A DNA stretch of 64,000 nt, taken from the IMG/VR virus record IMGVR_UViG_3300031132_000335. The stretch is one strand, 5' to 3'. A model generated the notes under the pieces. It was given only the letters and a program-made list of their open reading frames with translations. It was not told where the DNA came from and ran no database searches. The DNA is from an uncultured virus (IMG/VR IMGVR_UViG_3300031132_000335) (lineage: Duplodnaviria > Heunggongvirae > Uroviricota > Caudoviricetes). The translations under genes were made by a program, and so were the position numbers. This document shows, piece after piece, positions 5,171-62,678 of this stretch (positions are counted from its first letter, which is position 1; every line of letters begins with the position of its first letter).

Positions 5171-5365
5171 GGAGCCACCTCAGGTCCCACCTGAATGGGA
5201 CAGTTTTTGAACGGTAGAAGCTGGGGAGTCAATCCTCCTTCTCCTGCCGTTCACTCAATTCTCAGGAAGTTTCTTCCTGCCTCGGGTTGCATGTCGCCCG
5301 TGATCGTGTACAGTAAGTAGTATGTATACTGGCGGATTTTTTGACGAGATGGAAGAGTAAGAATC

Positions 5366-5602: not shown

Positions 5603-5777
5603 CTGCTCAACAGCTCAAACTCAACATCGTCTCAAAAAGACGAAGAGTTGAATAGAGAGCTTCACAAAAAGACCACAGGAAGTTTCTTCCTGTCTGGGGT
5701 TGCGCAGCGCCCCTGATCGTGTAGAGTTGAGTTCAGTAGGGAGGAACAGCCTCCCGAATCACTTCAAGGAGAACCCC

Positions 5778-5981
5778 ATGGCTCGTATCCAGCGACAGTT
5801 CATCGTCATCATTGAGGGCGAGCAGGACGACCTCGAAGACCTGATGGATGGTGCGATTGAGGACGCAATCTCCGACTCTCCCGACTTCCCGATGTATGAT
5901 GCAACGGTTGAGGTTCGCTTCGCTGGTGAGCTTGTTCACCGTGACGACCAGGCCGACTACCGCGAGCGCGACGACGACTAA
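5778..5981 (+). CDS. acidic hypothetical protein, paralogue of 1654
   Basis: Cassette leader; IQRQFIVIIEGEQDD. Confidence 0.8.
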   Translation: MARIQRQFIVIIEGEQDDLEDLMDGAIEDAISDSPDFPMYDATVEVRFAGELVHRDDQADYRERDDD

Positions 5982-6143
5982 GCAGTTTCACGACCTTAGA
6001 AAGCCCCGTTAGGAGAACAAGCCTGACGGGGCTTTCGCTTGTTCCAAAAAAGTTTGAGCTGAGGGTTGCATCACTCCCATGATCGTGTAGAGTAGGTATC
6101 AACAGGGAGGAACAGCCTCCCGAAAGCTTCAAGGAGAACCCTC

Positions 6144-6473
6144 ATGACGCAGGTAACGACCACTCAGGCAACGCTCTGGCAGGGTTTCCTCACTGAGGTG
6201 GCGGAGACGCTGATGGATGTCATCGGCATCACGGACAGTGAAGCCGATGCGGTGCAGAGCCTCCCGCAGGATTTCAGCAACTATGCGGGTCACTCCCTGA
6301 TGCTCAACAACGGCAACTCCCGTGGGCCGCAGTACTCGGTTCGGGTGACTCCGTACGGGTACGTGACGCTGGGCAGCCGCTCGCGTCTCAGCGCGCAGCA
6401 GCTGCGGGACCTGACGGAGGCCACGATGTTGCTCACCGCTACGGAGAAGCGTTACCACCAGCACACCCGCTGA
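6144..6473 (+). CDS. hypothetical protein, divergent paralogue of 6670/7489
   Basis: LWQGFLTEVAETL vs LWADYMAEVADTL. Confidence 0.8.
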   Translation: MTQVTTTQATLWQGFLTEVAETLMDVIGITDSEADAVQSLPQDFSNYAGHSLMLNNGNSRGPQYSVRVTPYGYVTLGSRSRLSAQQLRDLTEATMLLTATEKRYHQHTR

Positions 6474-6669
6474 TGACAGTGACAGTTCCGTAGCTCGTGC
6501 GTTCTCTCCGAGCTACGGAACTGTCACTGCTGGTGAAAAAAGACATGAGTTGATAACTCAGATACATCTCAGGAAGAAAGTTCCTGTCTGGGGTTGCACG
6601 CCGCCCCTGATCGTGTAAAGTTGGTATCATCAGGGAGGAACAGCCTCCCTCACAGTCTCGGGAGTCACC

Positions 6670-7020
6670 ATGCAGCAGGTCATCCTCACCAAGGAAATGC
6701 TTTGGGCGGACTACATGGCGGAGGTCGCTGACACGCTGAATGACTTCCTCGGCCTGAGCAAGGAAGAGCACCGCCGCATCACGAAGCTTTCGCAGCCGAC
6801 TGAGTGGAACGTCCAAATCTGGTTGGATGGTGGGAAGGTTTTCACGCCAGCTCAGTACAAAGTCATCGTCCAGGGAAACGGCCTGGTGTTCCTGACAAAC
6901 CTCGTCTACCTCACGTCAGCACAGAAGCGGAACTTCCTTGCAGCCAGGGCGCAGGTGAGGGAGTTCCAGCAGGAATACATGGACAAGCTCCTGTTCATCG
7001 GTACCCGACTGGACGTGTAA
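6670..7020 (+). CDS. hypothetical protein (copy A1)
   Basis: Cassette leader; close paralogue of 7489. Confidence 0.85.
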   Translation: MQQVILTKEMLWADYMAEVADTLNDFLGLSKEEHRRITKLSQPTEWNVQIWLDGGKVFTPAQYKVIVQGNGLVFLTNLVYLTSAQKRNFLAARAQVREFQQEYMDKLLFIGTRLDV

Positions 7021-7210
7021 GTGGGGGCAGGTTCGCCGCCAGCCTCCAAACTACTCGGCACCCTGGACAAGGTAGGTAAACTCTACGGTCTGGGGCTGCC
7101 GGCGATCTTTCAGGAAAAAGTTTGGTTTTGGTGTTGCGCTCGGCACGGAGTCGTGTAGAGTTGAGCCATCAGGGAGGAACAGCCTCCCGAACCACTTCCA
7201 GGAGAACACC

Positions 7211-7378
7211 ATGGCTGCCACCAAGACCGTCAAGTTCCGCGCCACGGCCAACCCCGAGTACGCTGCCGCGATGCGTGGCCTCCGTTCCTCCTCCGCCGCT
7301 TCCCCGCAGGACAACCGTCCGAACCGCCAGCGGACCCGCTCCACCGCGAAGCGCCAGGCCATCAAGAACGGCTGGTAA
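7211..7378 (+). CDS. 55-aa Arg-rich basic peptide, copy 1
   Basis: Hand-translated MAATKTVKFRATANPEY..NRPNRQRTRSTAKRQAIKNGW; cassette leader; not in ORF track. Confidence 0.9.
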   Translation: MAATKTVKFRATANPEYAAAMRGLRSSSAASPQDNRPNRQRTRSTAKRQAIKNGW

Positions 7379-7488
7379 GCCGAACTCTCAGGAAGTTCTT
7401 CCTGTCTGGGGTTGCAGACCGCCCCTGATCGTGTAGTGTTAAGTTCAGCAGGGAGGAACAGCCTCCCGAACAGCTTCAAGGAGTCATC

Positions 7489-7836
7489 ATGCAGCGAGTC
7501 ATCCTCACCCACGAAATGCTTTGGGCGGACTACATGGCGGAGGTCGCTGACACGCTGAACGATTTCCTCGGTCTGAGCAAGGAAGAGCACCGCGCCATCG
7601 CAAAGCTCCCGCGGAACGACTTCAACACCACGGTCCGCATGAACGGCGGCAAGCTGTACAAGCCGTTTGAGTACAGCATCATCATCCAGGGCAACGGTCT
7701 GGTGTTCCTGACGAACCTCGTCTACCTCACGGCAGAGCAGAAGCGCAATTTCTTCGCTGCTGAGGCTCAGGTGAAGGAGTTCCAGCAGGAGTACCTGGGC
7801 AAGCTTCGGCTTGTCGGTAACTACCTGGACGCGTAA
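7489..7836 (+). CDS. hypothetical protein (copy A2)
   Basis: Paralogue of 6670. Confidence 0.85.
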   Translation: MQRVILTHEMLWADYMAEVADTLNDFLGLSKEEHRAIAKLPRNDFNTTVRMNGGKLYKPFEYSIIIQGNGLVFLTNLVYLTAEQKRNFFAAEAQVKEFQQEYLGKLRLVGNYLDA

Positions 7837-8024
7837 GCGGGGCAGATACTCCGCCAGCCTCCAAACTACTCGGCACCCTGGACAAGGTAGGTAAACCCTA
7901 CGGTCTGGGGCTGCTGGCGAGCTTTCAGGAAAAAGTTTGGTTTTGGTGTTGCGCCCTGCTCGGAGTCGTGTAGAGTTGAGTCATCAGGGAGGAACGGCCT
8001 CCCGAAGAACCTCAGGAGAATCTC

Positions 8025-8192
8025 ATGGCTGCCACCAAGACGACCAAGTTCCGCGCCACGGCTAACCCCGAGTACGCTGCCGCGATGCACGGTCTCCGTT
8101 CTTCCTCTGCTGCTTCCCCGCAGGACAACCGTCCGAACCGCCAGCGGACTCGCTCCACCGCGAAGCGCCAGGCCATCAAGAACGGCTGGTAA
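8025..8192 (+). CDS. 55-aa Arg-rich basic peptide, copy 2
   Basis: Near-identical to 7211. Confidence 0.9.
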   Translation: MAATKTTKFRATANPEYAAAMHGLRSSSAASPQDNRPNRQRTRSTAKRQAIKNGW

Positions 8193-8304
8193 GCCAAACT
8201 CTCAGGAAGAAATTCCTGTCTCGGGTTGCATCGCTCCCGTGATCGTGTACAGTAAGTATCACCAGGGAGGAACAGCCTCCCGAAACGGCTTCAAGGAGAA
8301 CATC

Positions 8305-8625
8305 ATGGGCTACTACATCGTTTCCCCCGACGTGCACGCCGAGCAGACGGCAAAGCTGTCCAAGAAGCGGACGGGTAAGCTGGTGTGGGCAGCCGTGTTC
8401 GCTGCTTTCGCGGCGTACGGGCTGGTGGCGGGGCTGGTGGGCCTGTTCACGGCTACGGGCTTGCCCATCGTTTCCCTCGGATTCGTGTTCCTCATCGGAC
8501 TGGCGAAGACTGTGGAACAGCTGCTGGCAGCAAAGGAGCTGACGGAGGCCAAGAAGGAGCTGCACGTGGTGTGGCAGGGCGATGAGGATGAGGTCCCTTC
8601 GGCGGGGCTGACGCTGGCGAAGTAG
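8305..8625 (+). CDS. membrane protein, paralogue of 11826
   Basis: MGYYIVS.. two TM helices ..VW. Confidence 0.8.
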   Translation: MGYYIVSPDVHAEQTAKLSKKRTGKLVWAAVFAAFAAYGLVAGLVGLFTATGLPIVSLGFVFLIGLAKTVEQLLAAKELTEAKKELHVVWQGDEDEVPSAGLTLAK

Positions 8626-8659
8626 CCAATCAAAGGGAGGTGATTCCTCCTCTGATCCA

Positions 8660-8769
8660 GTCAACTCCCAGGAGAAAGATCGCCTGTGGAGTTGACACGC
8701 ATGCCCATAATCGTGGTAGGTTGTACTCATCAGGGAGGAACGGCCTCCCGAAAAGCCTCAGGAGCTATC
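8660..8769 (+). promoter_or_regulatory. Representative class II cassette promoter/leader
   Basis: GTCAACTCC..GGAGTTGAC inverted repeat overlapping -35 TTGACA 8692; 19-nt spacer; TGG-TAGGTT extended -10 at 8717; hairpin 8733-8749. Confidence 0.8.
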
Positions 8770-9096
8770 ATGATGACGAAGAACATCAACGACACGCACG
8801 CGGACCTCACCATCCTCACCGCGCAGCAGAAGTTCGGGTTCCCTGAGGACCGTGCGCAGCGGCTCATCCAGTCGGCTCCGTTCCTGCGTGGTTCGGAGAT
8901 GATTCTCCTGGACAACAACGCGGCGCTGTTCTTCCAGTACGAGACGCGTACGTTCCAGGACGGCGCTGAGAAGCTGTACCTGTCGGTTTCGGTCCACCAC
9001 GGTGACGGAGACCAGCGGGTCGCGGTTGGTCACGTGAATGATGCTACGGAGCGTGCGCTCCGTGCGGACTGGGTTGAGGAGCTGAGCGCTTACTAA
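8770..9096 (+). CDS. hypothetical protein
   Basis: Class II cassette leader. Confidence 0.8.
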   Translation: MMTKNINDTHADLTILTAQQKFGFPEDRAQRLIQSAPFLRGSEMILLDNNAALFFQYETRTFQDGAEKLYLSVSVHHGDGDQRVAVGHVNDATERALRADWVEELSAY

Positions 9097-9110
9097 ACTC
9101 GGGTCAAAAA

Positions 9111-9148
9111 GGAGGGGAGCTACCTGAATCGGTAGCTCCCCTCCTTTT
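9111..9148 (+). terminator. Intrinsic terminator, GGAGCTACC..GGTAGCTCC family
   Basis: GC-rich stem flanked by A- and T-tracts; relatives at ~12161, 12674, 35126, 37196, 55172. Confidence 0.85.
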
Positions 9149-9301
9149 GTTTTGCGACCATGATGGGGTTGCATACCAGGGTGAACTGCCGGCGAGCTTT
9201 CAGGAAAAACTTTCTGCCTGGGGTTGTACAGCTCCCCTGATCGTGTAGAGTTAGTACCACCAGGGAGGAACAGCCTCCCGAACCACTTCAAGGAAAGCAT
9301 C

Positions 9302-9598
9302 ATGACGAACCTCATGCAGACCACGGTAGCGAACAACGACGTGGACCGTGCGACCATCCAGCAGGCCAGCCAGCTCGTCAACACCGCTACCCTCGTCGCG
9401 GTGATTGAACTCCTGGTCTTCCCCGAGTTTGACAACGCGTTCCTCGTGGAGAGCTACGAAATGGCGGGAGGAAAGGGTGCCCCGACTGTCAAGGAGCTGG
9501 ACGACATGAGCACTCTCCTCATCCTCAAAAATCGTGAGGTTGCCGCGCCGCTCATTCAGCAGCTTCCCGAGACGGTTCGCAGGCGCTACACGGACTAA
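9302..9598 (+). CDS. hypothetical protein
   Basis: Cassette leader. Confidence 0.8.
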   Translation: MTNLMQTTVANNDVDRATIQQASQLVNTATLVAVIELLVFPEFDNAFLVESYEMAGGKGAPTVKELDDMSTLLILKNREVAAPLIQQLPETVRRRYTD

Positions 9599-9654
9599 CC
9601 TCGCTCCCATGAGTGAAGCCCTCTCCCAGCATCGGAAGAGGGCTTCACTGTTTT

Positions 9655-9689
9655 CTCCTCCTCCTCCTCCTCCTCCTCCTCCTCCTCCT
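9655..9689. repeat. (CTC)n microsatellite, ~11-12 units
   Basis: Directly read after terminator T-tract. Confidence 0.95.
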
Positions 9690-9867
9690 GTCAAAGCTAA
9701 TGAAAAAAGACATGAGTTAGCCAGCTCTCAGTGGGTGAGATGCTGACGCAGGATGTCAGACAGCTCGTTCAAAAAGTTCCTGTTTGGGGTTGCACAGCTC
9801 CCGTGATCGTGTAGTGTTGAGTTCACCAGGGAGGAACAGCCTCCCGAACCACTTCAAGGAGAACATC

Positions 9868-10131
9868 ATGTCGGTCAAGACGCAGAACAAGTCGGCTCGC
9901 GGTAGCAAGCTGCGCGGTACGCCCATCGTCGTGGCCGAAGTGGAGCTGACGGTGAAGGCGTTTGAGCGCGTCATCAACGAGCCTGTTGAGGTCACGCTGA
10001 ACTCGGGTGAGGTCATGCGTGGTCAGCTCGCAGGGAACGGCTTCTACAAGGGTTGGAAGCTCTACACGGCGGACGGTGTGCGCCAGTTCTTCCGTGCGGA
10101 CACTCGTTCGGTCGGTCTGCTCTCGCACTGA
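9868..10131 (+). CDS. hypothetical protein
   Basis: Cassette leader. Confidence 0.8.
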   Translation: MSVKTQNKSARGSKLRGTPIVVAEVELTVKAFERVINEPVEVTLNSGEVMRGQLAGNGFYKGWKLYTADGVRQFFRADTRSVGLLSH

Positions 10132-10281
10132 CTATCCAAGCCCTTCGGGGCTGATCTGTTCCACTCAGGAACATCCCAGGAAGAAAGTTTTTCCTGTCTG
10201 GGGTTGCATACCGCCCGTGATCGTGTAGAGTTGGTATCATCAGGGAGGAACAGCCTCCCAAACATTTTCAAGGAGAACATC

Positions 10282-10722
10282 ATGAGCAAGCGAATCAGCC
10301 GTATCAACTCGGTCAAGAACCTCACGTTCATCCTCTCCGCCGTCCTCGGTCAGGTCGCTGCGAACACCGCTCTGAACGCGGAGGAGAAGCGCGACCAGAA
10401 GATGGAGGACCGTTTTGCTACGATTCCCGCTCACAGCCGCGGCTGGCTCAACACGTTCCGTTGGGCAGCCTTCAAGCTCGCCTTCCTCATCCCGTTCGCG
10501 TTCATCGGTCTGGTCACGGTCAACGCGAAGTCGGAGAAGGCCGCTCTTCGGAACTTCGTTTCCCAGCAGCGTGACCGCTTCCGTTACATGAACATGAGCA
10601 GCCCCTACACGCAGGGACGGTACGAGGCATGGCTCGGCTGGGACCGCGAGTTCCTGGCGGAGGTCGTCACCAACGCGAACAAGCGTTCCGCTGAGCGTCG
10701 TGCAGCCGCTGCGATGGTCTGA
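10282..10722 (+). CDS. hypothetical protein, paralogue of 16131
   Basis: RGWLNTFR..SEKAAL shared. Confidence 0.8.
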   Translation: MSKRISRINSVKNLTFILSAVLGQVAANTALNAEEKRDQKMEDRFATIPAHSRGWLNTFRWAAFKLAFLIPFAFIGLVTVNAKSEKAALRNFVSQQRDRFRYMNMSSPYTQGRYEAWLGWDREFLAEVVTNANKRSAERRAAAAMV

Positions 10723-10895
10723 GCTTCCAAGCCCTTCGGGGCTGATCCGTTAGACTCAATGAAAAAAGACATGAATTCTAACTCAGGTACGTCTCAGGAA
10801 AAACTTCCTGTCTCGGGTTGTGTAAGCCCCGTGATCGTGTAGAGTTGAGTCATCAGGGAGGAATAGCCTCCCGAAGAACTTCAAGGAGAATCGCC

Positions 10896-11129
10896 ATGAG
10901 CTTCCACGACGACTACTCAGACCCTGACATCATTGTTGCGGACCGTCACATCGCAGACGACGACTACTCAGACCCTGATGTCGTCGTGAACTCCACTGAG
11001 TGTGACCACTGCTACCAGGACGGCGCATGGATGCGCAAGGCTGACCCCGTACGTGAAGCCTTGCACGCCAGAAAGGTCATGAAGCGGTACCACGAGGACT
11101 GCTACTACGAAGCTGCGGCGTGCATCTGA
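10896..11129 (+). CDS. putative Zn-binding protein (CxxC..HxxC)
   Basis: CDHC..YHEDCY; internal DDYSDPD repeat; paralogue of 49145. Confidence 0.75.
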   Translation: MSFHDDYSDPDIIVADRHIADDDYSDPDVVVNSTECDHCYQDGAWMRKADPVREALHARKVMKRYHEDCYYEAAACI

Positions 11130-11277
11130 CCAACTCAAAGCCCTTCGGGGCTGATCTGTACCACTCAGCTACATCTCAGGAAGAAAGCTCCTATCTCGGG
11201 TTGCATCAGGCTCGTGATCGTGTAGAGTTGAGTTCATCAGGGAGGAACAGTCTCCCAAACAACCTCAGGAGAACATC

Positions 11278-11451
11278 ATGCGTATCGTTGCCGCTCACGA
11301 ACTGGCCACGGGTGACATCATCATGGAGAACGGGTGCGACTGGCCTGTGAACTTCTCTTGCGCAGCTCCTGCTCCTGGATACACCACGGTGCACCTGCTG
11401 GACGGGACCCGCACGGGTTACCGCAGCAATGCCTCGGTTGTCGTTCGGTAG
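11278..11451 (+). CDS. 57-aa hypothetical protein
   Basis: Hand-translated MRIVAAHELATGD..; cassette leader. Confidence 0.7.
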   Translation: MRIVAAHELATGDIIMENGCDWPVNFSCAAPAPGYTTVHLLDGTRTGYRSNASVVVR

Positions 11452-11570
11452 CGGAAGCTACTCATCAAACTTTCGGGAAGAAATTCCTGTCTCGGGTTGC
11501 ATGACTCCCGTGATCGTGTAGTGTTGAGTTCACCAGGGAGGAACAGCCTCCCAAGAAGTTGGAGAGCATC

Positions 11571-11654
11571 ATGTCAGACGAAGAGTACAAGCAGATGTGT
11601 CAGCGGATGGAAGAGCTGTGGGGACCGAACTGGTTGAACGGAGCTGACTGGTAG
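11571..11654 (+). CDS. 27-aa micropeptide
   Basis: MSDEEYKQMCQRMEELWGPNWLNGADW; full promoter, hairpin and RBS. Confidence 0.7.
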   Translation: MSDEEYKQMCQRMEELWGPNWLNGADW

Positions 11655-11825
11655 ACCTCATCAGCAGGGTTCAACTGGGACAGTTTTTGAACAGTGCTCC
11701 ATTTGTTGCGTATGCGCTTACAAATGGAGCACTGAAAAATTTTTGAGTAGGGTGTTGCACTCAGAGGTCTGGGGTTGTACACTGGTATCAACGGAGCAAC
11801 CAGCTCCTACCGAACGGAGGACATC

Positions 11826-12146
11826 ATGGGCTACTTCATCGTCACTCACGAAGAGGCAGAGAAGCGTCGGGCAGTTGCTGAGCGAAACCGCAAGATGAGC
11901 GTGTTCTTCGGTTCGCTCTACGCTGCGATGAGCTTCCTGGCCCTGGTCATGGCAATCGTGTCCGTTGTCGCTCCCGAGACGTTCATCCCCTACGCGGTGT
12001 TCATCCTCATCGGGGTCGCAGTGTTCGCCGCTGTGCGGGCTGTCATCAGCTTCCGTCAGGCGCGAGAGTTCGCAGATTCGCGGAAGGCCATCAAGGCTGT
12101 CTGGTCGGGTACCGTGGGCCGTCCGTCCAAGGAAACGGTTCGCTGA
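11826..12146 (+). CDS. membrane protein, paralogue of 8305
   Basis: MGYFIVT.. two TM helices. Confidence 0.8.
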   Translation: MGYFIVTHEEAEKRRAVAERNRKMSVFFGSLYAAMSFLALVMAIVSVVAPETFIPYAVFILIGVAVFAAVRAVISFRQAREFADSRKAIKAVWSGTVGRPSKETVR

Positions 12147-12385
12147 CACAAGCTTGCAGAGGAGGGAGGAGCTACCAATTCAGGTAGCTCCTCCCTCCTC
12201 TCTTTTTGAGTGGACTGAGCTGGGACAGGTTTTGAGCGGTAGAGCTGGTGCACCTGACTTGCGTCCCGTTCAGTCCGAGTAGGGCTGAAAAAATTGGACA
12301 GAAGTTGACATGAGCTGTCCGAACCATGGTACAGTTGAGTCATCAGGGAGGAACAGCCTCCCGAACCACTTCCAAGGAGAACCTC

Positions 12386-12664: not shown

Positions 12665-12861
12665 GGTCAAAAAGGAGGGGAGCTACCAACTCAGGTAGCT
12701 CCCCTCCTTTTGTTTGAGCTGGTGAAAAAAGACATGAGTTGTGACGTTCATCGTTCCTCAGCTGGTGAAGCTCCAAAGCAGAGCTATGGATTGTGGCTGG
12801 AAGAATGGAATCATTCCTAAACCTGTTGCATTTGTCAGAGTGTAATGATAGGCTATGCTTT

Positions 12862-20895: not shown

Positions 20896-21063
20896 TTACC
20901 AGCCGTTCTTGATGGCCTGACGCTTGGCGGTGGAGCGAGTCCGCTGACGGTTCGGGCGGTTATCCTGCGGGGAAGCAGCAGAGGAAGAACGGAGACCGTG
21001 CATCGCGGCAGCGTACTCGGGGTTGGCCGTGGCGCGGAACTTGGTCGTCTTGGTGGCAGCCAT
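20896..21063 (-). CDS. 55-aa Arg-rich basic peptide, copy 3
   Basis: Near-identical to 8025. Confidence 0.9.
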   Translation of the reverse strand: MAATKTTKFRATANPEYAAAMHGLRSSSAASPQDNRPNRQRTRSTAKRQAIKNGW

Positions 21064-28322: not shown

Positions 28323-28554
28323 GGTTGTTCTCCTTGTAGTGAGGTGAGTTAGCTCCACGCTACTCTATGATGAGGTAGAAAGAAAGCTCAATCAGTCAGT
28401 TCTCAGCAATTCTTTCGTCTTTCTTAGACGAGGTGTTCAAGTAGGTTCGTAAACCCGAGTTTACTTTTTCTGTCTTTCCAGCTCAGATGTCAGAGGTGAC
28501 GAGAAAAGACATGAGCTGCGACCTTCTCTGGTCGCAGCTCATGTCTTGGAAGAG

Positions 28555-31128: not shown

Positions 31129-31263
31129 GTGCTTCTCCTGTTGTTCGGTGAGTCAGTGGGATCAGGCTATCACAGTAGTGCAGAGGATGTCGTCAGTTCA
31201 ACCAACAGTTCTGTTCCAGCTACGACATCCAGAGTTGTTGAGGCTTATGAAAAAAGACATGAG

Positions 31264-31761
31264 TTAGAGCTGGAAGGTAGCGATGTTGCGGGTGTCAGCG
31301 AATAGCTCACCCCGATGCTCACTTACCACCAGGTTATCCACCAACAGCTTCTGACCTGCGGGAAGTCGTTCATTTTTTGACGGCAGGCTCAGATGAGGTC
31401 GGAAGTTTGCCATTGTGTACTGCGGTTCACCCAAAGCCAACTCATGTTCGGAAGCCAGACGGATGAGAGCTTCATGGAGGTGTTGAGCTGCCTCATGCTC
31501 ATCTACAAGAGTCACGACAGGGATGCTACCATCAGCTCCGAAGAACTCCACCTCGTCGGTCGTCAAAAAGAATGGAATTGTCGTAGCAGCCAGCTCTTCC
31601 AGCTCATGGAGAAACTCATCCAGCTGAGCATCCTGTGGGACTCGGACATAAGCAAGAAAGGTGACATGTGGCGAGTCTTCAACTCGGGTCACGGGATACA
31701 GGTCCGAGAAAAACGCCATGATGAACAAGGTTCTCATGAGCGTCCCTTTCTGGCCTGTCAT
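31264..31761 (-). CDS. 2H phosphoesterase (2'-5' RNA ligase superfamily)
   Basis: Two catalytic motifs PHVTF and FRPHLSL with typical spacing. Confidence 0.8.
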   Translation of the reverse strand: MTGQKGTLMRTLFIMAFFSDLYPVTRVEDSPHVTFLAYVRVPQDAQLDEFLHELEELAATTIPFFLTTDEVEFFGADGSIPVVTLVDEHEAAQHLHEALIRLASEHELALGEPQYTMANFRPHLSLPSKNERLPAGQKLLVDNLVVSEHRGELFADTRNIATFQL

Positions 31762-40667: not shown

Positions 40668-41258
40668 ATGACGAAACTTGTAGAGCCTTGGGAATACACG
40701 CATCCGCAAAAAGAGTGGTTCAAGCAGACTGATCTGAATGGTTGGCAGCAGCTCATGAAGTCGTTTTTTGACGATGAGCTACAAAGCACTCCTTGGCATG
40801 GTGCGCCTCTTGCAGATGAAAGTCAGGATTTGATCCCTCATCTGCATGCTCTTGTAGATACTGGATTCATCACCACGAATAGCCAACCAGGTGTGGATGA
40901 ACTATGGAAGTTGCAGCGTTACCGGCAACGTGCTTGGGTAGAAGGTTTCTGTGACTTGCAGACCGCATTCAAGCTCCTTCCGTTGAATACGATCCCCGAC
41001 ATTCAGGTGAATGTAGTGCTGAACGGTGGAGCTTCTTCACTGTCCCGACGATACGAGTTACCTGTCACACGCCACGGACTCCGCACCCTGACGTGGCATG
41101 GTGAAGACTTCGTATTCCCTGTCACTGATGGTCTCCGACGAGAAGATTTCGCCATGGGTGCTTGGCAGGAGATGTCCAAATGGTGCACCGTTTCAGTTGT
41201 TGACTTGCGCTGGGGTGAGAATCGTTTGTGGGAGCTGCTACGCAACGCGTTGAGCTGA
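40668..41258 (+). CDS. DUF6919-like protein (leaderless)
   Basis: GFITTNSQPG..RQRAWVEGF motif; TATCAT-6nt-ATG. Confidence 0.5.
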   Translation: MTKLVEPWEYTHPQKEWFKQTDLNGWQQLMKSFFDDELQSTPWHGAPLADESQDLIPHLHALVDTGFITTNSQPGVDELWKLQRYRQRAWVEGFCDLQTAFKLLPLNTIPDIQVNVVLNGGASSLSRRYELPVTRHGLRTLTWHGEDFVFPVTDGLRREDFAMGAWQEMSKWCTVSVVDLRWGENRLWELLRNALS

Positions 41259-41360
41259 GGCTATTGTTAAGCCTTGTGAAAAAAGACATGAGTTCCTAGG
41301 AGCAGGAGGAGCTGAGACCAAAGTCAAGGTCTCAGCTCCTCCTGCTCCTAGTGTGCTGGC

Positions 41361-42561: not shown

Positions 42562-42822
42562 GAGGAACTCTCCGCCGGCGACGGAATGAATGAGGGGCTC
42601 TTCACGTTACAGATGTCGGGAGTAATGAAAAAAGACATGAGCTATCTGCGTGAAGAAGCTGGTAGGAATACTTCTTGGGCTCATTAGCCCTTCGCTTCGT
42701 TTTTAGGGCCGCTACGATTTTATAGGGTAGACTAATTGGGTTTCCTCCTCATGGTCATCCCGAGCCTTACGGAGAAAGCGTGCAAGACATTACGTACGAA
42801 CGCTGGATTGAAGGAGATAAAC

Positions 42823-46975: not shown

Positions 46976-48286
46976 ATGAGTAATGATCTGACTATTGTTG
47001 GCTGTGCAGGCTTTCTTGGTGGTACCGAAAAAGAGTTCAGGTTTTTTGAACCGTTAGTCCGTAACAGCAATGATGAGCTATTTGTCATAGGAACGCCGAA
47101 TCCTGCAAGTCTCAGTCATTTGATTCCTGCCCGAAAAGACGGCCCTCTCCTTCTTGACATCCCTGAGTCCATTCAAGTTCCGTACAAGGTCTCCTCTCGT
47201 GATGAAGCTCAAAAAGTCATTATTGCCGGTCCCCGAATTGTGGAGCTCCTCCTCAAATACTTGTCAGATGCACCACTCACTCAAAAAGTTCAAGACTGGC
47301 CCGTGGCTACTGATGCAGGTCATCGGGCTATGGTTGGCACTATTGAAGACATCCAGATAGAACGAGGACTTGCTGTGCAGCCTGCGTTCATCCAGGCGTT
47401 GCAAGAGCTGAAATCAGGCACTATTCGTGGCGAGGCTTACGATCTGTTCTACTCCATCTACCCTAATGAGAACTTAGAGGTTGTCGGCTACCTTGGCATC
47501 TATGCGACAGCAATCAACGATAAAGAGCTATTAGAAAAGCAGCTTGTTCTCAGAGCTGAACGCTTAGGGCTGTCAAAAGAGCATTACCGCACTCTCATTT
47601 CACAGATGTCTGTGGCTTTTGACCTAAGAGGGTTGGAGCCGAGCTTCACTGTTGTCGGTTTCGTCGGAGACATAAATGACCCGTATGCAAGCATGAAGCA
47701 GAACATGCCTGTGCTGGAAGATGCATACGGCAAGAAGTTCGTTATGGGTACCCCTGACCCTGCAAGTCCGAATCACCTTCTTCCAGCTGTTCCGTACCAG
47801 CATCTTCATCTGTTTGCAGATGAGAAGTTACGTCGCCCTTTCATTCCTTCCACAGCTCCTTTATTTGAAGAAGAGCAAACAGTCGCTACGGTCAGCTACG
47901 ATTGCTATTCTCGCTTGACTGCTGACTTTTTGAATGACCCGTTGACGCAGCAGCTCATCACATGGAGCTACTTAGATGCCACCATGCGAAAAGTTGCGGT
48001 AGTGAACCGTAAGCAGTTCGTTGCTGACCGTCAAGCATTCCTGCGCCGTTTGTTCCCTGTCATGATGGCTAATTTGGATGGCGGAGAGGGTGACCTGATT
48101 CGTCTGTTCAAATCATTTGTTCCTGTTGAGACTTTGGAGTACCTCAGCTTCCTCAGCTTGTATTACCAGTCAGCAGGGTATGACTCAGAGCGCAAAGAGC
48201 GTGTTGTTACTCGTGCAAAAAGACATGGAGTAACTGAGGAGGAATTCCAAGAGCTGGTGAAGCAGACAGCTCAGGAGTACCTCTGA
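46976..48286 (+). CDS. 436-aa protein with internal domain duplication (leaderless)
   Basis: GTPNPASLSHLIPA / GTPDPASPNHLLPA; RAERLGLSKE / RAKRHGVTEE. Confidence 0.8.
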   Translation: MSNDLTIVGCAGFLGGTEKEFRFFEPLVRNSNDELFVIGTPNPASLSHLIPARKDGPLLLDIPESIQVPYKVSSRDEAQKVIIAGPRIVELLLKYLSDAPLTQKVQDWPVATDAGHRAMVGTIEDIQIERGLAVQPAFIQALQELKSGTIRGEAYDLFYSIYPNENLEVVGYLGIYATAINDKELLEKQLVLRAERLGLSKEHYRTLISQMSVAFDLRGLEPSFTVVGFVGDINDPYASMKQNMPVLEDAYGKKFVMGTPDPASPNHLLPAVPYQHLHLFADEKLRRPFIPSTAPLFEEEQTVATVSYDCYSRLTADFLNDPLTQQLITWSYLDATMRKVAVVNRKQFVADRQAFLRRLFPVMMANLDGGEGDLIRLFKSFVPVETLEYLSFLSLYYQSAGYDSERKERVVTRAKRHGVTEEEFQELVKQTAQEYL

Positions 48287-49637: not shown

Positions 49638-49787
49638 GAGTGTGTCTCCTTCGTGGTTGTGATGATGTTGAGTGTAGCTGAATCTGGAACCAAGAGCAAC
49701 TGTACTCAGCCATGTCACAGCTTCTGGAAAAAGACAAGGGTTGCAACCTGTTGAGGTTACAACCCTTGTGGAGCTGGAAGTTCGTAC

Positions 49788-51841: not shown

Positions 51842-52123
51842 ATGCTCAACACACATGAATACCACGTAACTTTCAACGCAGCTCTTCGTGAGCGTTACCG
51901 CAGGGAAACGACAAGCGAAGAGCTGGCAGAGAAGATAGAAGCAATCAAGGTTCAGTACCGCGATTACCTGGACTTTACGTTCGGAGCGGAGCTGAACACA
52001 GCACAGCTTGACTTGGCGTACCATTTCGCAGAGAACAACTACTGCGGTGAAGATGGCATGACATTGGAGGACCGTTTCTCCGAAGTCTGCGACTTGATGC
52101 GAGCTGCATTCGCTGCACAGTGA
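51842..52123 (+). CDS. helical paralogue family member 5
   Basis: QYRDYLDFTFG.ELN..Q..AY.FA. Confidence 0.75.
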   Translation: MLNTHEYHVTFNAALRERYRRETTSEELAEKIEAIKVQYRDYLDFTFGAELNTAQLDLAYHFAENNYCGEDGMTLEDRFSEVCDLMRAAFAAQ

Positions 52124-52200
52124 GAACAAGAGGGAGACAAGGCCAATAAAGGTCTCGTCTCCCTCTTGTGTTTCCAGGAGTCACATGTTACGATCAACCT

Positions 52201-52824
52201 ATGACTGCACAGAATGACACGCTGCGGAAGCAGCTCGGTATCATCATCGCTGAGGGTGACCAGAACGACCATGCGTTCATCCTCACCGCACTTCAAGCTG
52301 CCTCTGATGCTTTGCGTGGAGCTGACCTGACGATTGACTGGCTCCGCAAGGACTGGGCAAAGCACAAGAACGAGCTGGATGAGTGGACTCCGAACGAGGT
52401 GTCCTACGGCATCCTGAACAGCTCTGATGCGCCGCGTGACCTGGTTGCGTTCCATCAGCCTGAGCCTGTCCGCTACCGTGTTCCTGAGGACGCAGCGACG
52501 GACCTGGCTGGTGGGTTCATCCGCAAGGTTGGAAAGTACGTCTCTGTGCACAAGCCGCTTGCCTTCGCACTGTCGGAGGAGGATGCAGCAGAGCGCTGGG
52601 AGCTGGGCCGCTTCTCCTACGACGAGACCGCTGTCGGCGTGGACGCATCTGATGTTCTCGCAGCTCGGGTGGATGACGCTCGTCGTGAACCGAGCGGGAT
52701 GCTGATTCCTCTGGACCTGGCGGATGGTGTCACGTGCCCGAACAAGCACGTCCTCGCTTCGGCACAGCTACTTCGGAAGCAGGCAGAGCAATTGGTGCTG
52801 ACGCTTACTCCCGAAGAGGACTAA
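52201..52824 (+). CDS. hypothetical protein (leaderless)
   Basis: TACGAT-6nt-ATG. Confidence 0.75.
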   Translation: MTAQNDTLRKQLGIIIAEGDQNDHAFILTALQAASDALRGADLTIDWLRKDWAKHKNELDEWTPNEVSYGILNSSDAPRDLVAFHQPEPVRYRVPEDAATDLAGGFIRKVGKYVSVHKPLAFALSEEDAAERWELGRFSYDETAVGVDASDVLAARVDDARREPSGMLIPLDLADGVTCPNKHVLASAQLLRKQAEQLVLTLTPEED

Positions 52825-52980
52825 GCCCTTCTATTCAAGGAGGAGGTAGCCAGAAATGGTTACCTCCTCCTTTTGTTTACCCTTTCGTAAAAAGACATGA
52901 GTAACGCCCTATGAAAATGGGATGAGAAAAATCCATTTGGTAGAATAGGTCTTATCCCCAATTCTTCCCAGGAGTTTCCA

Positions 52981-54081
52981 TTGTCCCAACCTGTCTACGG
53001 CATCGTAAATAGTAACCGCGATTTGACAAAGGAATCATCCTGGGGCAAGAACCAGTTCAATAACTTCATGCCTGTCGCCTTACTGAGTTGGATGAACGAT
53101 AACGATTACACCATTGGTGAAATCAGTCTGACTGACGAGCTAACCCCGAAGAACACTTCACGCATTCCGTCAGAAGTCTTCCCGTATCTGAGCCAGGAGC
53201 ACAAGAACCTCCGCTACGACTTTGAAGCGGAAGCTGACACCTCACTAGTTGACCCGAGCTATCATCTGCGCCATGACTGCGTGGTCAAAAACTTTACGAC
53301 CCAAGAGTCTTTGGCAGCTCTGGAAGTCAAGCTCACAACCTTCCCTGACTTCTCTACCCAGAACCTCCCTAGAGAGCAGATGGGGTCTGAGCTGGTTGTG
53401 CGCCCTGACACTATCGTCGGCATTGCTGACAGTGTAGCCGCACGGAATACGCTAGCTGATAAAGCGCTTGAAGCTGTTCAAAAAGTAGCAGCGTCTGTTC
53501 GTGAAGCAGGTAATGATGCAGCAGCTCAAACAAACCTCCTCCCTTCGGTCCATACTGCGGTGTCAGCTATCTTACGGAACGCTCATAAGCAGCAGAAGCC
53601 CACCCTTCTCCAAGCCATTTGGAACACAATGGGCGAGCAAAACGAGACAGACGGGGTGAAGAACTTCACTGACATCTTCGTATGGACAGACAGCGCTCTC
53701 CTGCACCTCTGCCTAGACGCGAAGCTCACCTCTCTCACGAGGTCCCAGAGGTCACTAGTGTGGTTCCTCCTGATGTGGGATGACGCAGTGCAGAACAAGC
53801 TCATCACTCCTGACTCAGTAATCAACACATTCACCTTCTCCACGAAGAACGACAAAGCGTTCTCTGTTGGTGGGAAGACGACGAACCGCTACTTGCGCAG
53901 TGAAAGGCTTGTAGCTCCGTCCGTGCCAGAGCGAGTCCTCTACAATGACATCACTGATGTGGAGCACATCCGCTATTTGAAGCCTGAGCGCCGGTTAGAT
54001 GCTTGGCTGGACTCCCGAGCTGACTTGTTCGTTCTCCTAGACGACGATGAAGAGGATGAGGTCCTCGGCGAGTTGGAGTGA
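52981..54081 (+). CDS. HindVP-family type II restriction endonuclease (family recognises GRCGYC)
   Basis: NSNRD..SWGKNQFN N-terminus; HD..LEVKLT PD-(D/E)XK core; GSELVVRPDTI; KNDKAF; PERRLDA C-terminus; AGGAG RBS with TTG start. Confidence 0.85.
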   Translation: MSQPVYGIVNSNRDLTKESSWGKNQFNNFMPVALLSWMNDNDYTIGEISLTDELTPKNTSRIPSEVFPYLSQEHKNLRYDFEAEADTSLVDPSYHLRHDCVVKNFTTQESLAALEVKLTTFPDFSTQNLPREQMGSELVVRPDTIVGIADSVAARNTLADKALEAVQKVAASVREAGNDAAAQTNLLPSVHTAVSAILRNAHKQQKPTLLQAIWNTMGEQNETDGVKNFTDIFVWTDSALLHLCLDAKLTSLTRSQRSLVWFLLMWDDAVQNKLITPDSVINTFTFSTKNDKAFSVGGKTTNRYLRSERLVAPSVPERVLYNDITDVEHIRYLKPERRLDAWLDSRADLFVLLDDDEEDEVLGELE

Positions 54082-54570
54082 GCGGAAACTCTTCTTCTTT
54101 TTGACGACATCGCCGGTTGGTTCAGCTCTGACCGGTGATGTCGTTCTTTGCTATAGCTCGCCAGCTACAGGTCCGACACCACCGGTCAGCTCCGTCACTA
54201 TATAAAAGGGGGTCTAATGGTTTGGTTACCCTCTCACTTCCGCATGAAATCAACGAAGTAGGCGGTTGTAATAGTAGCAAAAGACGGAAATTTTTTGACT
54301 TGCTACCAGGTCGGAGTATGGTCTCAGCTCCGCTTCCGGTGGATGGAGCTGGCCCCGCAAATAGATCAGGAACAGCTCGGACCGGGCCATATAAAGAGGG
54401 GTCTAATGAGAGGCCCTGCCCGTACTTCGTTGATTTCATGCGGATCGGGGAAGCACATGGCTGACAAAAGACGGCAAAATGAGAGCTTCCGCGTGGTTGC
54501 ATGTGGGCTCTGCCGGGCCGGCATTCGTTGTGAGGAGCTCGCTAGAAGGAACTCGTGGGGAGCTCTTAGA

Positions 54571-54620
54571 CGCTAGACAGCCGGTGAGCTCCTCACATGG
54601 AACTCACCGGCTGTCTAGCG
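54571..54620 (-). terminator. 18-bp perfect hairpin downstream of rpmJ
   Basis: CGCTAGACAGCCGGTGAG-N14-CTCACCGGCTGTCTAGCG. Confidence 0.6.
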
Positions 54621-54634
54621 CAGGGGGCTTCTGG

Positions 54635-54751
54635 TTAGCCCTGACGCTGCTTGTGACGAGGGTTGGCAGCGCAGATGACCTGGACAACACCATTACGCCT
54701 GATGGTGCGGCACTGGTCGCACTGAGGCTTCACGCTTGGACTGACTTTCAT
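54635..54751 (-). CDS. rpmJ: 50S ribosomal protein bL36 (Zn-ribbon type)
   Basis: Hand translation [38 protein letters not shown] (38 aa); intact CxxC..CxxxxxH; AAGGAG RBS. Confidence 0.95.
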
Positions 54752-54874
54752 GAGCTTCTCCTTTCCTCCTGCTTCAACGCAGGAGAGAGGTCTTTCATTC
54801 CTCCTATGTTAGAGGGCATGAAAAAAGACACGAGTAGCAAGGTACGCTACTCGTGTCTTTCAGTAGAGGGGGTA

Positions 54875-55090
54875 TTAGCTGAACGTCGGAGGGGAAGGAA
54901 CCAGCTCCTTGCTCACCAGACGGCTCATGATGGTGAGAACGTGCTTCTCCGCCTCATCCTTGTCCAGACCGAGAGTGCCGTATGCAATCATCTCCGCCTG
55001 TCCGCGCACGTAGTTCCAGTGCGAGGTCTTCTGCATGTTGGCCTGCTCACACAGCGAACGACCGAGCAGCAGCATCTGGTAGTAGTCCAT
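54875..55090 (-). CDS. hypothetical protein
   Basis: ORF with downstream hairpin. Confidence 0.6.
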   Translation of the reverse strand: MDYYQMLLLGRSLCEQANMQKTSHWNYVRGQAEMIAYGTLGLDKDEAEKHVLTIMSRLVSKELVPSPPTFS

Positions 55091-55216
55091 GATTTTTTCT
55101 CTTCTCTCTCAATATGAGCTGCGGTATCAGCTCATGTCTCCACACTACCAGGCACCTCTGACAAACACAAATGAGGGGAGCTACCAGTCTTGGTAGCTCC
55201 CCTCATTCAGGGTGAC

Positions 55217-55471
55217 TCAGGCGGTTGCTCGCTTCATGAGGACTCCGCAGTACACGATGAAACTCATGCCAAGCAGCACAGCGGTCAAAAGCGGAAGCAG
55301 CACCATAGCCCACAGCAGCGGGCTGATGACGGTAGCGGACGGAGCAGCCAACCAGATGAACAGGGCGAGACCGAACGGAACCAGCAGGATTGAGCGGACA
55401 GCACGGTTGAATGCGTCACGGTGCTTGCTACGGACCGTGACCAGACGGGTAAGAAGATTCTTCACGAGCAT
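55217..55471 (-). CDS. membrane protein
   Basis: Two TM helices. Confidence 0.7.
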   Translation of the reverse strand: MLVKNLLTRLVTVRSKHRDAFNRAVRSILLVPFGLALFIWLAAPSATVISPLLWAMVLLPLLTAVLLGMSFIVYCGVLMKRATA

Positions 55472-55617
55472 GAGTAGGGGGTTCCTTTCTGTGGGACTTG
55501 ACCAGTCTAACCGTTTGAAGCTTCAACCTCAACTTGAAGGGGAAACAGTTACCGCTCTGTGACAAATAAAAACACGCCCTACCAGTTTGCAGTAGGGCGT
55601 GTTTTTATGAAGCTGAG

Positions 55618-55938
55618 TCAGCGGATGTAGCCAAGCATGTAGTCCACGACGAGCTGGGTTCCCTGCTCCGAGGGACCATCCTCACCCTTCGCCTTCACAA
55701 GGGCTGCCAGCATCACGATGTCATCCTGGGTCTCCACGTGGAGCATCCGCTCGCCATCCTCATCCAGCGCCTTACGGACAGCGGCTGCCTTGCCGTCCAG
55801 ACGAACGTAGTTGGTCATGTCCAGCGACTCGTTGTTACGCAGGGTCAGCAGGTTCTCTTCGGCCGAAGCGAGACGGTTGATGATGTCTTCTCGGAAGAGC
55901 GTGACCTTCGGGTCCTTGGTGTTGATGATGTTTTCCAT
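55618..55938 (-). CDS. hypothetical protein, related to 56041
   Basis: DPKVTLFREDII..RLDGKAAAV. Confidence 0.75.
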   Translation of the reverse strand: MENIINTKDPKVTLFREDIINRLASAEENLLTLRNNESLDMTNYVRLDGKAAAVRKALDEDGERMLHVETQDDIVMLAALVKAKGEDGPSEQGTQLVVDYMLGYIR

Positions 55939-56040
55939 GAGAGTAACTCCTTCTTGGTTTGAGGGAGTCTGTTCTACCCTCTATCTACGATCAGTGTAGC
56001 AGGGTAGAAGCTGGGATGTCCAGCCCTGCTACAACCGTTT

Positions 56041-56382
56041 TTAGTGGCGGTACTCGGAGATGATGTAGTTCGCTTCACTGATACCGCTCATCTTCGCTTT
56101 GTACTCATCGGTGAACCGCTCAGCAAGCGAAAATCCGAAGAATGACATGCGTCCCAGGAGAAGGCTCAGTGGGGCAGACTCGTTGTAACGGTTCAGGTTC
56201 TCCTGGACCTTCTCCTTGACAGCCTCCACACCTGCGACCTTACCGAGGAAGCGTGCACGAGCCTCTACCCCATTGCAACGGTCACGCATCTCAGTCAAAA
56301 GAGCGATGCGCTCATCCAACTTGCCGATGATTTCAGCGCGGAACTTCGTGGCCTTCGGGTCAGCCGTGAGGGTGTCAGTCAT
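56041..56382 (-). CDS. hypothetical protein, related to 55618
   Basis: DPKATKFRAEII..RFLGKVAGV. Confidence 0.75.
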   Translation of the reverse strand: MTDTLTADPKATKFRAEIIGKLDERIALLTEMRDRCNGVEARARFLGKVAGVEAVKEKVQENLNRYNESAPLSLLLGRMSFFGFSLAERFTDEYKAKMSGISEANYIISEYRH

Positions 56383-56442
56383 GAGGATTCCTGTCCGTTA
56401 TAAAGATGAGGAAGCGAGTGCTTCTTACTCAGTGTAACACGG

Positions 56443-56829
56443 TCAACCTGTGGTGGCAACTACTTGGATGGAAATCAGCTTCTTGTCCTCGTTGAAGGTT
56501 AGGTAGTCGCCTTTTCGGGTACGATCCCATTCGGTCTTGCTGAGCTGGTAGGTCTTGTGCTTATCCCCTGCGGTGATGACGACGAACCAACGGTCGGGGT
56601 AGCTGACTTCTTTACAAGCAGAGACTTTGACTGGCCCTCCAATGAGATGACATTCTTTCCCCAGATGAGCTGGGTCGTACCGCTTCTGGGAAAGGACACC
56701 TTCATGGATAGGCTTTGAGGAAACGAAAATGGCGCAGATGATCCCAATGAGAGCTATCAAAGCCAATACCATGACAATGCGGAACTTCCAGTCAACGTCA
56801 GGATCGTAGATTGATTGTTTCTCAGTCAT
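56443..56829 (-). CDS. membrane-anchored Cys-pair protein, paralogue 1
   Basis: TM + G.L..K..PA..C..C..PDRW..GDYLTF. Confidence 0.75.
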   Translation of the reverse strand: MTEKQSIYDPDVDWKFRIVMVLALIALIGIICAIFVSSKPIHEGVLSQKRYDPAHLGKECHLIGGPVKVSACKEVSYPDRWFVVITAGDKHKTYQLSKTEWDRTRKGDYLTFNEDKKLISIQVVATTG

Positions 56830-57217
56830 TGGATGTTCCGATGTTTTTGACAGCTTGCCCGTTGATGCTCGTGAGATGATGGTGCTTGAAGACCAGGTGA
56901 TCGCCTTTGCTTACCTGGTTCCATTCTTGTTGGCTGAGGTCAAAGTTGTTTCCCTTGTCTCCCTTGTTGATGATGACGTACCACTTGTCAGGAGAGTATT
57001 GTGTGCAAGACGTGGGTACTTTACCTGCCATGCAGGTGCCTTTATATTCATGAGCTGCGGAGAAGTTCTTCTCTGTCACTATCCCGTCCTGAGGTCCAGC
57101 CCACAATAAACGCAGTAAGAAGAACAAGCCGATGAGGGCGAACAGCACTGCAAGCAACCTGAGGTTTACTTTCCAGGCAGGGGTAGCGGCTTTTGGAGTT
57201 GAAGTTGTCTGACTCAT
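56822..57217 (-). CDS. membrane-anchored Cys-pair protein, paralogue 2
   Basis: PDKWYVII..GDHLVF. Confidence 0.75.
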   Translation of the reverse strand: MSQTTSTPKAATPAWKVNLRLLAVLFALIGLFFLLRLLWAGPQDGIVTEKNFSAAHEYKGTCMAGKVPTSCTQYSPDKWYVIINKGDKGNNFDLSQQEWNQVSKGDHLVFKHHHLTSINGQAVKNIGTSND

Positions 57218-62012: not shown

Positions 62013-62678
62013 TCAGATGAACGTCTGCGTGACTCCGACGACCTGAATCTTGCTGGCACGGGCAAGCATGCTGACGCTGCCAGGAGTCTCCCAACGGTTC
62101 AGGTACCGAACTGCATCGTACACCTGAATCTCGTTCTTCCAGTCCACAGGCTCCCAGGAGTCAGCGTATCGCTCATCCGAGTTGGTGTGAGTCGGCCAAA
62201 CGTTGTCGTCAGAAAGGATGTGGGAGGCCAGGTTTGTGTCCTCCATGAGCGTCACTTCGTACAGGTAGAACTCGCCGCCCTTGTGGTCCAGGGAGTCGTG
62301 GATTCGCTCAATCGCTGCGCTCTTCGTTCCCAGGTGCACGTAGAGGTCACCTTCACGTGGGTTGCGGACAAGGATGTTCTTGTCCCAGTTCTCCCGCGTC
62401 GTTGCGTGGTACCAGACGGTGGTACGCGCAGCGCTGTCCTCAATCAGTTCAGCGGAACGGCTCTCCACGTCAACCTTGCAGTTGTCAGGGGTGAACTCAC
62501 GGAAGGTGTTGTCTGCATCGTTCTCGCAGTGCTGGCAGGTGATGAGGTCGCCGTAGGCTGCCAGGTCCCGCTTGGTTCCCCACTCACGGCGGGTCATGTG
62601 CTTACCGCAGTTCTCGTTCGGGCAGATGAGGCCGACAGTGTTCGGTTCAGCGACTGCGTAGTCCGTGAGGATGGTCAT
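62013..62678 (-). CDS. Zn-ribbon plus possible ADP-ribosyltransferase-like domain
   Basis: CPNENC..CQHC; WYHATT; VHLGTKSAA; RYLNRWETPGS; fold call tentative. Confidence 0.45.
   Translation of the reverse strand: MTILTDYAVAEPNTVGLICPNENCGKHMTRREWGTKRDLAAYGDLITCQHCENDADNTFREFTPDNCKVDVESRSAELIEDSAARTTVWYHATTRENWDKNILVRNPREGDLYVHLGTKSAAIERIHDSLDHKGGEFYLYEVTLMEDTNLASHILSDDNVWPTHTNSDERYADSWEPVDWKNEIQVYDAVRYLNRWETPGSVSMLARASKIQVVGVTQTFI

Follow-up and report, generated by a model that had tools for sequence, protein, structure and literature searches.

The DNA considered here is a stretch of 64,000 nucleotides (nt) from the IMG/VR record IMGVR_UViG_3300031132_000335 (the window), and it contains, on the minus strand at 54635..54751, an rpmJ-type gene of 38 codons plus a TAA stop that encodes the ribosomal protein bL36. 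The identification is secure, and the gene is intact, full-length, and of the zinc type (type A, C-C-C-H). The initial annotation had described a 38-residue bL36 with a ribosome-binding site (RBS) and a downstream hairpin, and this description holds, as the translation is exact, the family models match and both signals were located. Comparison with the Pfam family PF00444 (Ribosomal_L36) gave a match over positions 1-38 of 38 with an E value of 1.9e-18 and 66.7 bits, well above the cutoff of 26.1, and the NCBIfam model TIGR01022 (rpmJ_bact) is matched with an E value of 5.9e-18 and 64.7 bits versus a cutoff of 22.7. Moreover, the window protein aligns end to end with L36 from solved ribosomes in the PDB, 48 distinct chains in all (phmmer, best E value 4e-15), with identities of about 71-74% in the best three alignments displayed. 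The zinc ligands C11, C14, C27, and H33 are present and in register with the solved chains, and they have the type A spacing C-x2-C-x12-C-x5-H. The window protein shares its length, the full alignment, the ligands, and the C-terminal KQRQG with bacterial bL36 of type A (chains 5myj_B8, 6o8w_6, and 5o60_f), from which it differs by five rare residues and by its carrier, a giant element rich in ORFans. For a broader view, 1.84 billion cluster representatives were searched, and the best 150 of 2,413 matches yielded 154 aligned L36 stretches, among which the zinc-ligand columns are 98-100% conserved. All positions with a conservation of at least 95% in these stretches are kept in the window protein, including the near-invariant positions K2, V3, S6, V7, K8, R19, G21, I26, K34, Q35, Q37, and G38. 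The five rare residues are S4, Q10, Q13, T16, and Q24, each of which occurs in 1-3% of the 154 stretches, and the top identity among the best 150 of the 2,413 matches is 78%. Three of the library entries (P0046, P0048, and P0050) are internally duplicated, namely a tandem double L36 of 79 residues and forms of 51-52 residues with a repeated central segment, which may be real or due to assembly.

The gene was further claimed to lie outside any ribosomal operon, and this proved correct, as no IF-1, S13, S11, or SecY family was found in the 64-kb window by Pfam scans of 106 greedily called open reading frames (ORFs) and 132 codon-model genes. In this respect it differs from the four database L36 genes that were checked, all of which stand in a secY-(adk-map)-infA-rpmJ-rpsM-rpsK setting, and resembles the type B (Cys-less) bL36 paralogues, the hallmark of which is a second L36 gene located away from the ribosomal operon. 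However, a type B (zinc-free) identity was rejected: the score with the model NF002021 is 42.4 bits versus a cutoff of 70, all zinc ligands are present, and there is no Zur-box match nearby. For the latter, two consensus motifs were searched with up to 3 mismatches, and no Zur-box-like site was found near L36; the two motifs have 0 and 1 matches in the window (the single match at 26641), both at chance level.

The Shine-Dalgarno sequence AAGGAG (54758..54763, minus strand) lies 6 nt ahead of the ATG and agrees in sequence and spacing with that of a repeated promoter/leader cassette of the element (AAGGAGAACATC-ATG), which is described below. Just upstream of the RBS is a small leader hairpin (54765..54786, minus strand) with the arms CTCCTGC / GCAGGAG, the 3' arm of which overlaps a first AGGAGG; the corresponding fold of 71 nt has -23.4 kcal/mol and a z-score of -2.6, with 2 of 200 shuffles equally good, and thus supports this hairpin weakly. 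A 23-bp hairpin lacking a T-run (54570..54621, minus strand) starts 14 nt past the L36 stop and has a folding energy of -52.8 kcal/mol versus -21.95 +/- 3.16 in 200 shuffles (z-score -9.8). On the other side, an intrinsic terminator with a 17-bp stem and a T-run (54821..54861, minus strand; -26.7 kcal/mol, z-score -8.7) is located between L36 and the upstream gene, which encodes 71 residues without an assigned function (54875..55090, minus strand), has a cassette-like promoter and typical codon use, and whose protein was found on contigs of up to 883,042 bp. This terminator is a member of a conserved family (D15/D19; …TGAAAAAAGACATGAGT…) with about 10 copies in the window, which often stand back to back with an opposite-strand terminator with a GGAGG stem. 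The copies are located at 6506-6551, 9673-9718, 12695-12740, 28472-28517, 31220-31265, 41249-41294, 42603-42642, 49697-49742, 52863-52902, and 54796-54835, the last of which directly precedes L36. In two long terminator hairpins, namely the one after the L36 stop (loop at 54591-54600) and another one (loop at about 55186-55191), the window and the related strains of the metagenome loci L001 and L002 have the same stems but loops that are exact reverse complements, so that small segments have flip-flopped at inverted repeats.

Two further ORFs overlap the locus. A 16-codon upstream ORF (54748-54798, minus strand) spans the small leader hairpin, and its TGA overlaps the L36 ATG (ATGA). It is given little weight here and translational coupling is doubtful, since its AGGAGG is altered in the two related metagenome loci L001 and L002. 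The 212-codon ORF at 54479-55117 on the plus strand, antisense to L36, was rejected as spurious because it has a negative coding score and is absent from the protein collection. Regarding transcription, contigs of the metatranscriptome run X20 cover 54869-55064, 55620-55974, 56046-56347, and 52002-122, and none covers 54635-54751. This comparison was made at 52000-57000 with contig data only from X20, the probable DNA run X19, and the DNA runs X8 and X14; as RNA libraries may hold DNA, gaps prove nothing.

Downstream of L36 and convergent to it, a type II restriction endonuclease of the HindVP family is encoded at 52981-54081 on the plus strand (Pfam E value 8.7e-65), the protein of which is present on contigs of up to 880,975 bp. 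Pfam scans of the window ORFs revealed no methyltransferase family. It had been suggested that bL36 could replace the host supply once host DNA is cut by this enzyme. Such a functional link is unsupported: the two genes are convergent, a gap of 553 nt with terminators separates them, and the codon use of the enzyme is atypical, while that of L36 is typical. Between them, at 54082-54634 (about 550 nt), there are three hairpins but nothing that qualifies as a credible gene: the coding scores of the two long ORFs are -0.8 and -0.77 per codon, the one on the minus strand does not occur in the protein collection, and Rfam gave no match for this stretch. The synonymous codon use of the HindVP enzyme does not exceed the 1st percentile among the genes of the element, and the same is true for the gene of a DUF6919 protein (40668-41258) and for the longest ORF of the window, which encodes a 436-residue protein (46976-48286). 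These three genes may have been acquired recently or be members of a different expression class.

Is the L36 gene then a piece of bacterial DNA that was picked up recently? No ribosomal or other recognizable host gene stands beside it according to the Pfam scans of the window. Its synonymous codon use corresponds to the 19th percentile of the genes of the element, and 19% of random samples of 37 codons fall at or below it. The 117 nt of the gene are identical in three contigs, namely the window and the metagenome contigs of L001 and L002, although the flanks in L001 and L002 differ from those of the window by substitutions, indels, and inverted hairpin loops. L002 corresponds to positions 332,833-338,889 of the 878,612-bp metagenome contig Ga0308164_10000004, in which the gene was located by an exact 57-mer, so that L36 lies about 335 kb inside this contig, among genes of the element type and not at a contig or prophage edge. 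Because of the lack of host flanks, the identity of at most 78%, the rare residues, the element-like codons and RBS, and the identity in three contigs, L36 is not a fresh host fragment and is adapted to the element. The initial annotation had also seen a resemblance to actinobacterial L36 as a hint at the host, and this hint is unsupported. L36 is matched in 384 of 401 sampled Actinomycetota genomes, most at 68-76% identity and the best at 78% (G278, which is not an unpublished genome); the tally includes 14 unpublished genomes (G395, G322, G092, G124, G272, G052, G340, G005, G178, G230, G243, G022, G152, and G347). The best value of 78% in Actinomycetota equals the best of the 150 library representatives and is near the approximately 71-74% of the solved chains. 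The actinobacterial likeness is therefore real, but no greater than that to other L36 proteins, and does not point to a host. As the host sampling based on L36 covered only Actinomycetota, no host is called.

The carrier is large. Exact lookup of the restriction enzyme, the 436-residue protein, the DUF6919 protein, the 71-, 106-, and 113-residue neighbors of L36, and others placed the neighboring proteins on contigs of 828,331, 858,429, 878,479, 878,612, 880,975, 881,636, and 883,042 bp from three sources. Contigs of 828-883 kb suggest a replicon of about 0.88 Mb. The element or close relatives are present in public runs of 16 studies of phyllosphere, leaf litter, plant, or surface metagenomes, with three entries from two of these studies being flagged as the possible source, and contigs with 95-100% identity cover the region around L36 in two DNA runs (X8 and X14). 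Judged by title and abstract, the papers found on huge phages of the phyllosphere do not describe such an element. No relative was found among 185,579 GTDB species genomes, neither with a protein-alignment scan nor with a 19-mer scan; the latter gave 14 scattered single matches in unrelated metagenome-assembled genomes, none of them clustered, which are due to chance or unrelated.

The most conspicuous feature of the window is a cassette of about 115 nt, which consists of a short hairpin, the motif TTGCNT about 17 nt before GTGTAGAGT, a leader hairpin, and then AAGGAGAACATC-ATG. The leader hairpin of 19 nt (CAGGGAGGAACAGCCTCCC), which buries a GGAGG, has 45 copies with at most 3 mismatches between 692 and 58381 of the window, versus 0.04 expected; 20 copies lie on the plus strand at 1614-12362 and 19 on the minus strand at 13617-36248. 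For 42 of the 45 copies, the following 60 nt contain an ATG with which an ORF of 27-146 codons starts, in most cases with an AAGGAG-like RBS. Judged from this arrangement, the 45 cassettes look like a uniform early-promoter/leader system with a sigma70-like promoter. Greedy calling of the longest ORFs turned out to be wrong-stranded over much of 1.6-36 kb, and cassette- and codon-based calls were used instead. The codon model trained on the cassette genes gave 134 genes, 106 of them high-scoring, with a median of 96 residues. The stop codons of these 106 genes are TAA (52), TGA (38), and TAG (16). An alternative genetic code, prompted by the longest ORF of only 436 codons and the frequent TGA, was rejected, since the cassette-defined and codon-model genes use all three stops; the code is standard and the genes are simply tiny.

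Only a handful of the 106 greedy ORFs and 132 codon-model genes match any Pfam family, and the families in the window are HindVP, DUF6919, DUF3228, HTH_3, HEAT/LRV repeats, and, weakly, 2'-5' RNA ligase. Matches to PHROG comprise phrog_3641, 8077, 10980 (two paralogues), 4392, 14279, and 21405, which are phage families without an assigned function; the phrog_3641 ORF has in addition a weaker match to an HNH endonuclease (phrog_10696), and there is one marginal match to a tail protein (E value 8e-4). No tRNA was found in the window with ARAGORN, and Rfam gave 0 families at gathering score. The few homologues found with tblastn are proteins without an assigned function, and all of them belong to phages, namely Salicola phage SCTP-2 (440 kb), Xanthomonas phage XacN1 (385 kb), Microcystis phage MaAM05 (274 kb), and Bacillus phage Eldridge (166 kb). 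In XacN1, the homologue is part of a similar row of tiny ORFs close to the end of the genome, where 24 coding sequences are annotated in 8.2 kb.

Several side observations concern the same gene field. A basic protein of 55 residues is present in three near-identical copies (7211-7378, 8025-8192, and 20896-21063; two on the plus and one on the minus strand), and a paralogue family of about 115 residues has two to three copies (6670-7020, 7489-7836, and also 6144-6473). A direct repeat of 272 nt (7199-7470 / 8013-8284, 89% identical) covers part of the paralogue region. The 221-residue protein at 62013-62678 (minus strand) has sub-threshold similarity in the ESM Atlas to ADP-ribosyltransferase-like folds (Arr, ART-PolyVal, RES); its nearest clusters are hypothetical proteins, mostly of Actinomycetota, and as all scores stay below the naming threshold, this is a lead only. 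For the 436-residue protein the ESM Atlas gave nothing.

Ribosomal proteins encoded by viruses have been described repeatedly, and the L36 gene of the window is similar to these in being small, in standing as a single gene alone among viral-type genes, and in presumably substituting for a host protein. L36 is not named in the main texts of the three sources compared (Mizuno et al., 2019, PMC6375957; Al-Shayeb et al., 2020, PMC7162821; PhiMa05 preprint, 10.1101/2025.09.23.678156), and the viral nature of the carrier here is likely. As far as its main text goes, Mizuno et al. (2019) list bS21, bL12, bL9, bL31, bL33, bS6, uS9, and uS15 as viral ribosomal proteins, with 0 occurrences of L36 or bL36. 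In the main text of Al-Shayeb et al. (2020) S4, S1, S21, and L7/L12 are named and L36 occurs 0 times, and that of the PhiMa05 preprint names bS1, bL21, bL27, bL33, uL11, and uL1, again with 0 occurrences of L36 or bL36. A literature search on ribosomal protein L36 in phage genomes gave, judged by title and abstract, no relevant report. A tblastn search with the window protein among 50,697 phage records gave 15 matching records, 6 of which were inspected for gene context. Four of these six (OR846589.1, CAKLQF020000004.1, MT835508.1, and MT836419.1; L004-L007) are bacterial operon DNA of the type secY/adk/map-infA-rpmJ-rpsM-rpsK(-rpsD-rpoA), and hence host sequence filed as phage. The other two represent one uncultured huge phage of 735 kb (LR756501 / LR756503), and its locus was read in LR756501. 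It contains an unannotated stand-alone L36 of 38 residues at 343502-343615 of LR756501.1 (L003, locus 6001-6117; Pfam E value 1.2e-21), directly upstream of RtcB and near genes for adenylosuccinate synthetase and DUF2828/DUF7788 proteins. Like the window gene, it stands alone and away from ribosomal genes, in this case in a very large phage. However, it is only 50% identical to the window protein, and of its zinc ligands the first Cys and the His are missing, which makes it similar to the zinc-free form; due to this low identity and the two missing ligands it is probably an independent acquisition. In addition, 2.9 million IMG/VR contigs were scanned for the motif V-I-C-x3-P-x-H-K-Q-R-Q-G, which represents the 38-residue form and misses 37-residue and variant forms. 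Two contigs were found, both of them prophage ends with holin and lysin genes that run into host infA-rpmJ. Stand-alone viral L36 is thus rare, with one other case found, unannotated in LR756501, and the window gene reads as a new member of the virus-type ribosomal-protein genes with this one unannotated huge-phage precedent. Counts of ribosomal proteins in phage collections that are made without checking the context overstate the number of viral ribosomal-protein genes.

Taken from its architecture and the few homologues, the carrier is probably a virus of some kind, and the window is most likely the early or accessory gene field of a very large virulent phage of a leaf or leaf-litter bacterium. 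The designation "phage-encoded" of the initial annotation is accordingly likely but unproven, with the cassette architecture and the homologues of the jumbo-phage type on its side and the lack of any hallmark virion or packaging gene in 64 kb against it. We favor, with a probability of about 0.5, the reading that a non-cellular replicon of about 0.88 Mb maintains a functional, zinc-binding bL36 as an auxiliary gene standing on its own, the replicon being most likely a very large virulent phage. A number of observations weigh against this reading. Neither Pfam nor PHROG scans revealed a terminase, portal, capsid, or tail family in the 64-kb window, the element and the cassette were absent from the IMG/VR searches, and megablast found no phage relative in GenBank. 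According to a June 2026 review (PMC13282480), the largest phage genome has 735 kb, a maximum which the element with about 880 kb exceeds. Furthermore, the exchangeable proteins that Mizuno et al. (2019; PMC6375957) name in their main text as typical of viral ribosomal proteins do not include bL36. Evidence for selection on the gene is weak, as 0 differences in 117 nt compare with about 3 expected at the divergence of the flanks in three close strains; the gene is too short and the strains too close for this identity to be more than a weak sign. Finally, a strong terminator stands directly ahead of L36, and no sigma70-like promoter or cassette was found in the approximately 55 nt between the end of its T-run (54821) and the L36 RBS. 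Since there is no recognizable promoter after this terminator, L36 is probably expressed via read-through or antitermination from the cassette-like promoter of the 71-codon gene, and would therefore be a delayed or low-level product.

The alternative that survives best, although we regard it as unlikely, is that the replicon of about 880 kb is a non-viral megaplasmid or giant element, the extra rpmJ of which tops up or varies the L36 of the host. The missing virion and packaging genes, the absence from IMG/VR, and a size above that of any phage cited in the review fit this idea, and similar sizes across assemblies fit any stable replicon. However, one promoter/leader cassette, repeated 45 times, drives tiny ORFan genes, which is a pattern of phage early regions, the homologues were found only in phages, three of four being jumbo phages, and Pfam scans of the 64 kb gave no replication, partition, or conjugation family. 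To our knowledge, there is no plasmid with such a repeated promoter/leader cassette.

A phage-borne L36 could also act off the ribosome, as a zinc buffer, as a decoy for a host factor that senses L36, or as a binder of RNA or zinc, or it could be a neutral passenger, which altogether appears rather improbable. Two usually basic positions are uncharged (S4 and Q24), there are three unusual Gln residues, and the gene has a strong terminator and no evident promoter ahead of it. As loss of rpmJ is reported to be linked to zinc resistance in Escherichia coli, L36 affects zinc handling. Nevertheless, all near-invariant L36 positions are kept, well beyond the zinc ligands, and the score is far over the family cutoff; for a passenger, decay, foreign codon use, or foreign flanks would be expected, and none of these is seen. 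That the contig is instead the chromosome of a small-genome bacterium, the own and possibly only rpmJ of which moved from the operon into a hypervariable island, is very unlikely, because even though about 0.88 Mb is normal for reduced bacterial genomes, L36 is intact, and promoters and RBS are of the bacterial type, the 64 kb contain about 130 mini-genes with almost no known families and no tRNA, the homologues are phage proteins, and no relative was found in two scans of 185,579 GTDB species genomes despite the occurrence in runs of 16 studies.

The bL36 protein is a zinc-ribbon protein near the GTPase-associated center and one of the last proteins to join the 50S subunit. Although dispensable, with rpmJ deletions being viable in laboratory strains, it is needed for full activity, and many bacteria pair it with a zinc-free paralogue under Zur control. 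If the zinc-binding bL36 is indeed a gene of a very large phage, its product would enter the normal bL36 site of host 50S subunits that lack L36, or would replace the host form. The phage might in this way supply bL36 when the host supply fails or is unsuitable, be it due to host shut-off or to zinc-dependent switching of the paralogues, and the supplied protein would complete or repair large subunits and thereby sustain translation through a long infection. A remodeling of host ribosomes during takeover, as proposed by the initial annotation, is conceivable. More tentatively, a complete tailed phage of about 0.88 Mb that is frequent on leaves and leaf litter may be the carrier, and its own zinc-type bL36 may be built into the host 50S during infection.

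If this is true, the gene would represent the first case of a buried, late-assembling protein of the large subunit that is encoded by a virus, and the phage would intervene in ribosome assembly or repair, beyond the swapping of loosely bound surface proteins. The carrier could have the largest genome of any phage seen to date, and the regularity of its promoter cassette offers a handle on early gene expression. Most of the viral ribosomal proteins known at present are loosely bound and exchangeable, so that a phage bL36 that is used would represent a different point of attack on translation, acting on the completion or repair of subunits or on the zinc-dependent choice of the L36 form by the host.

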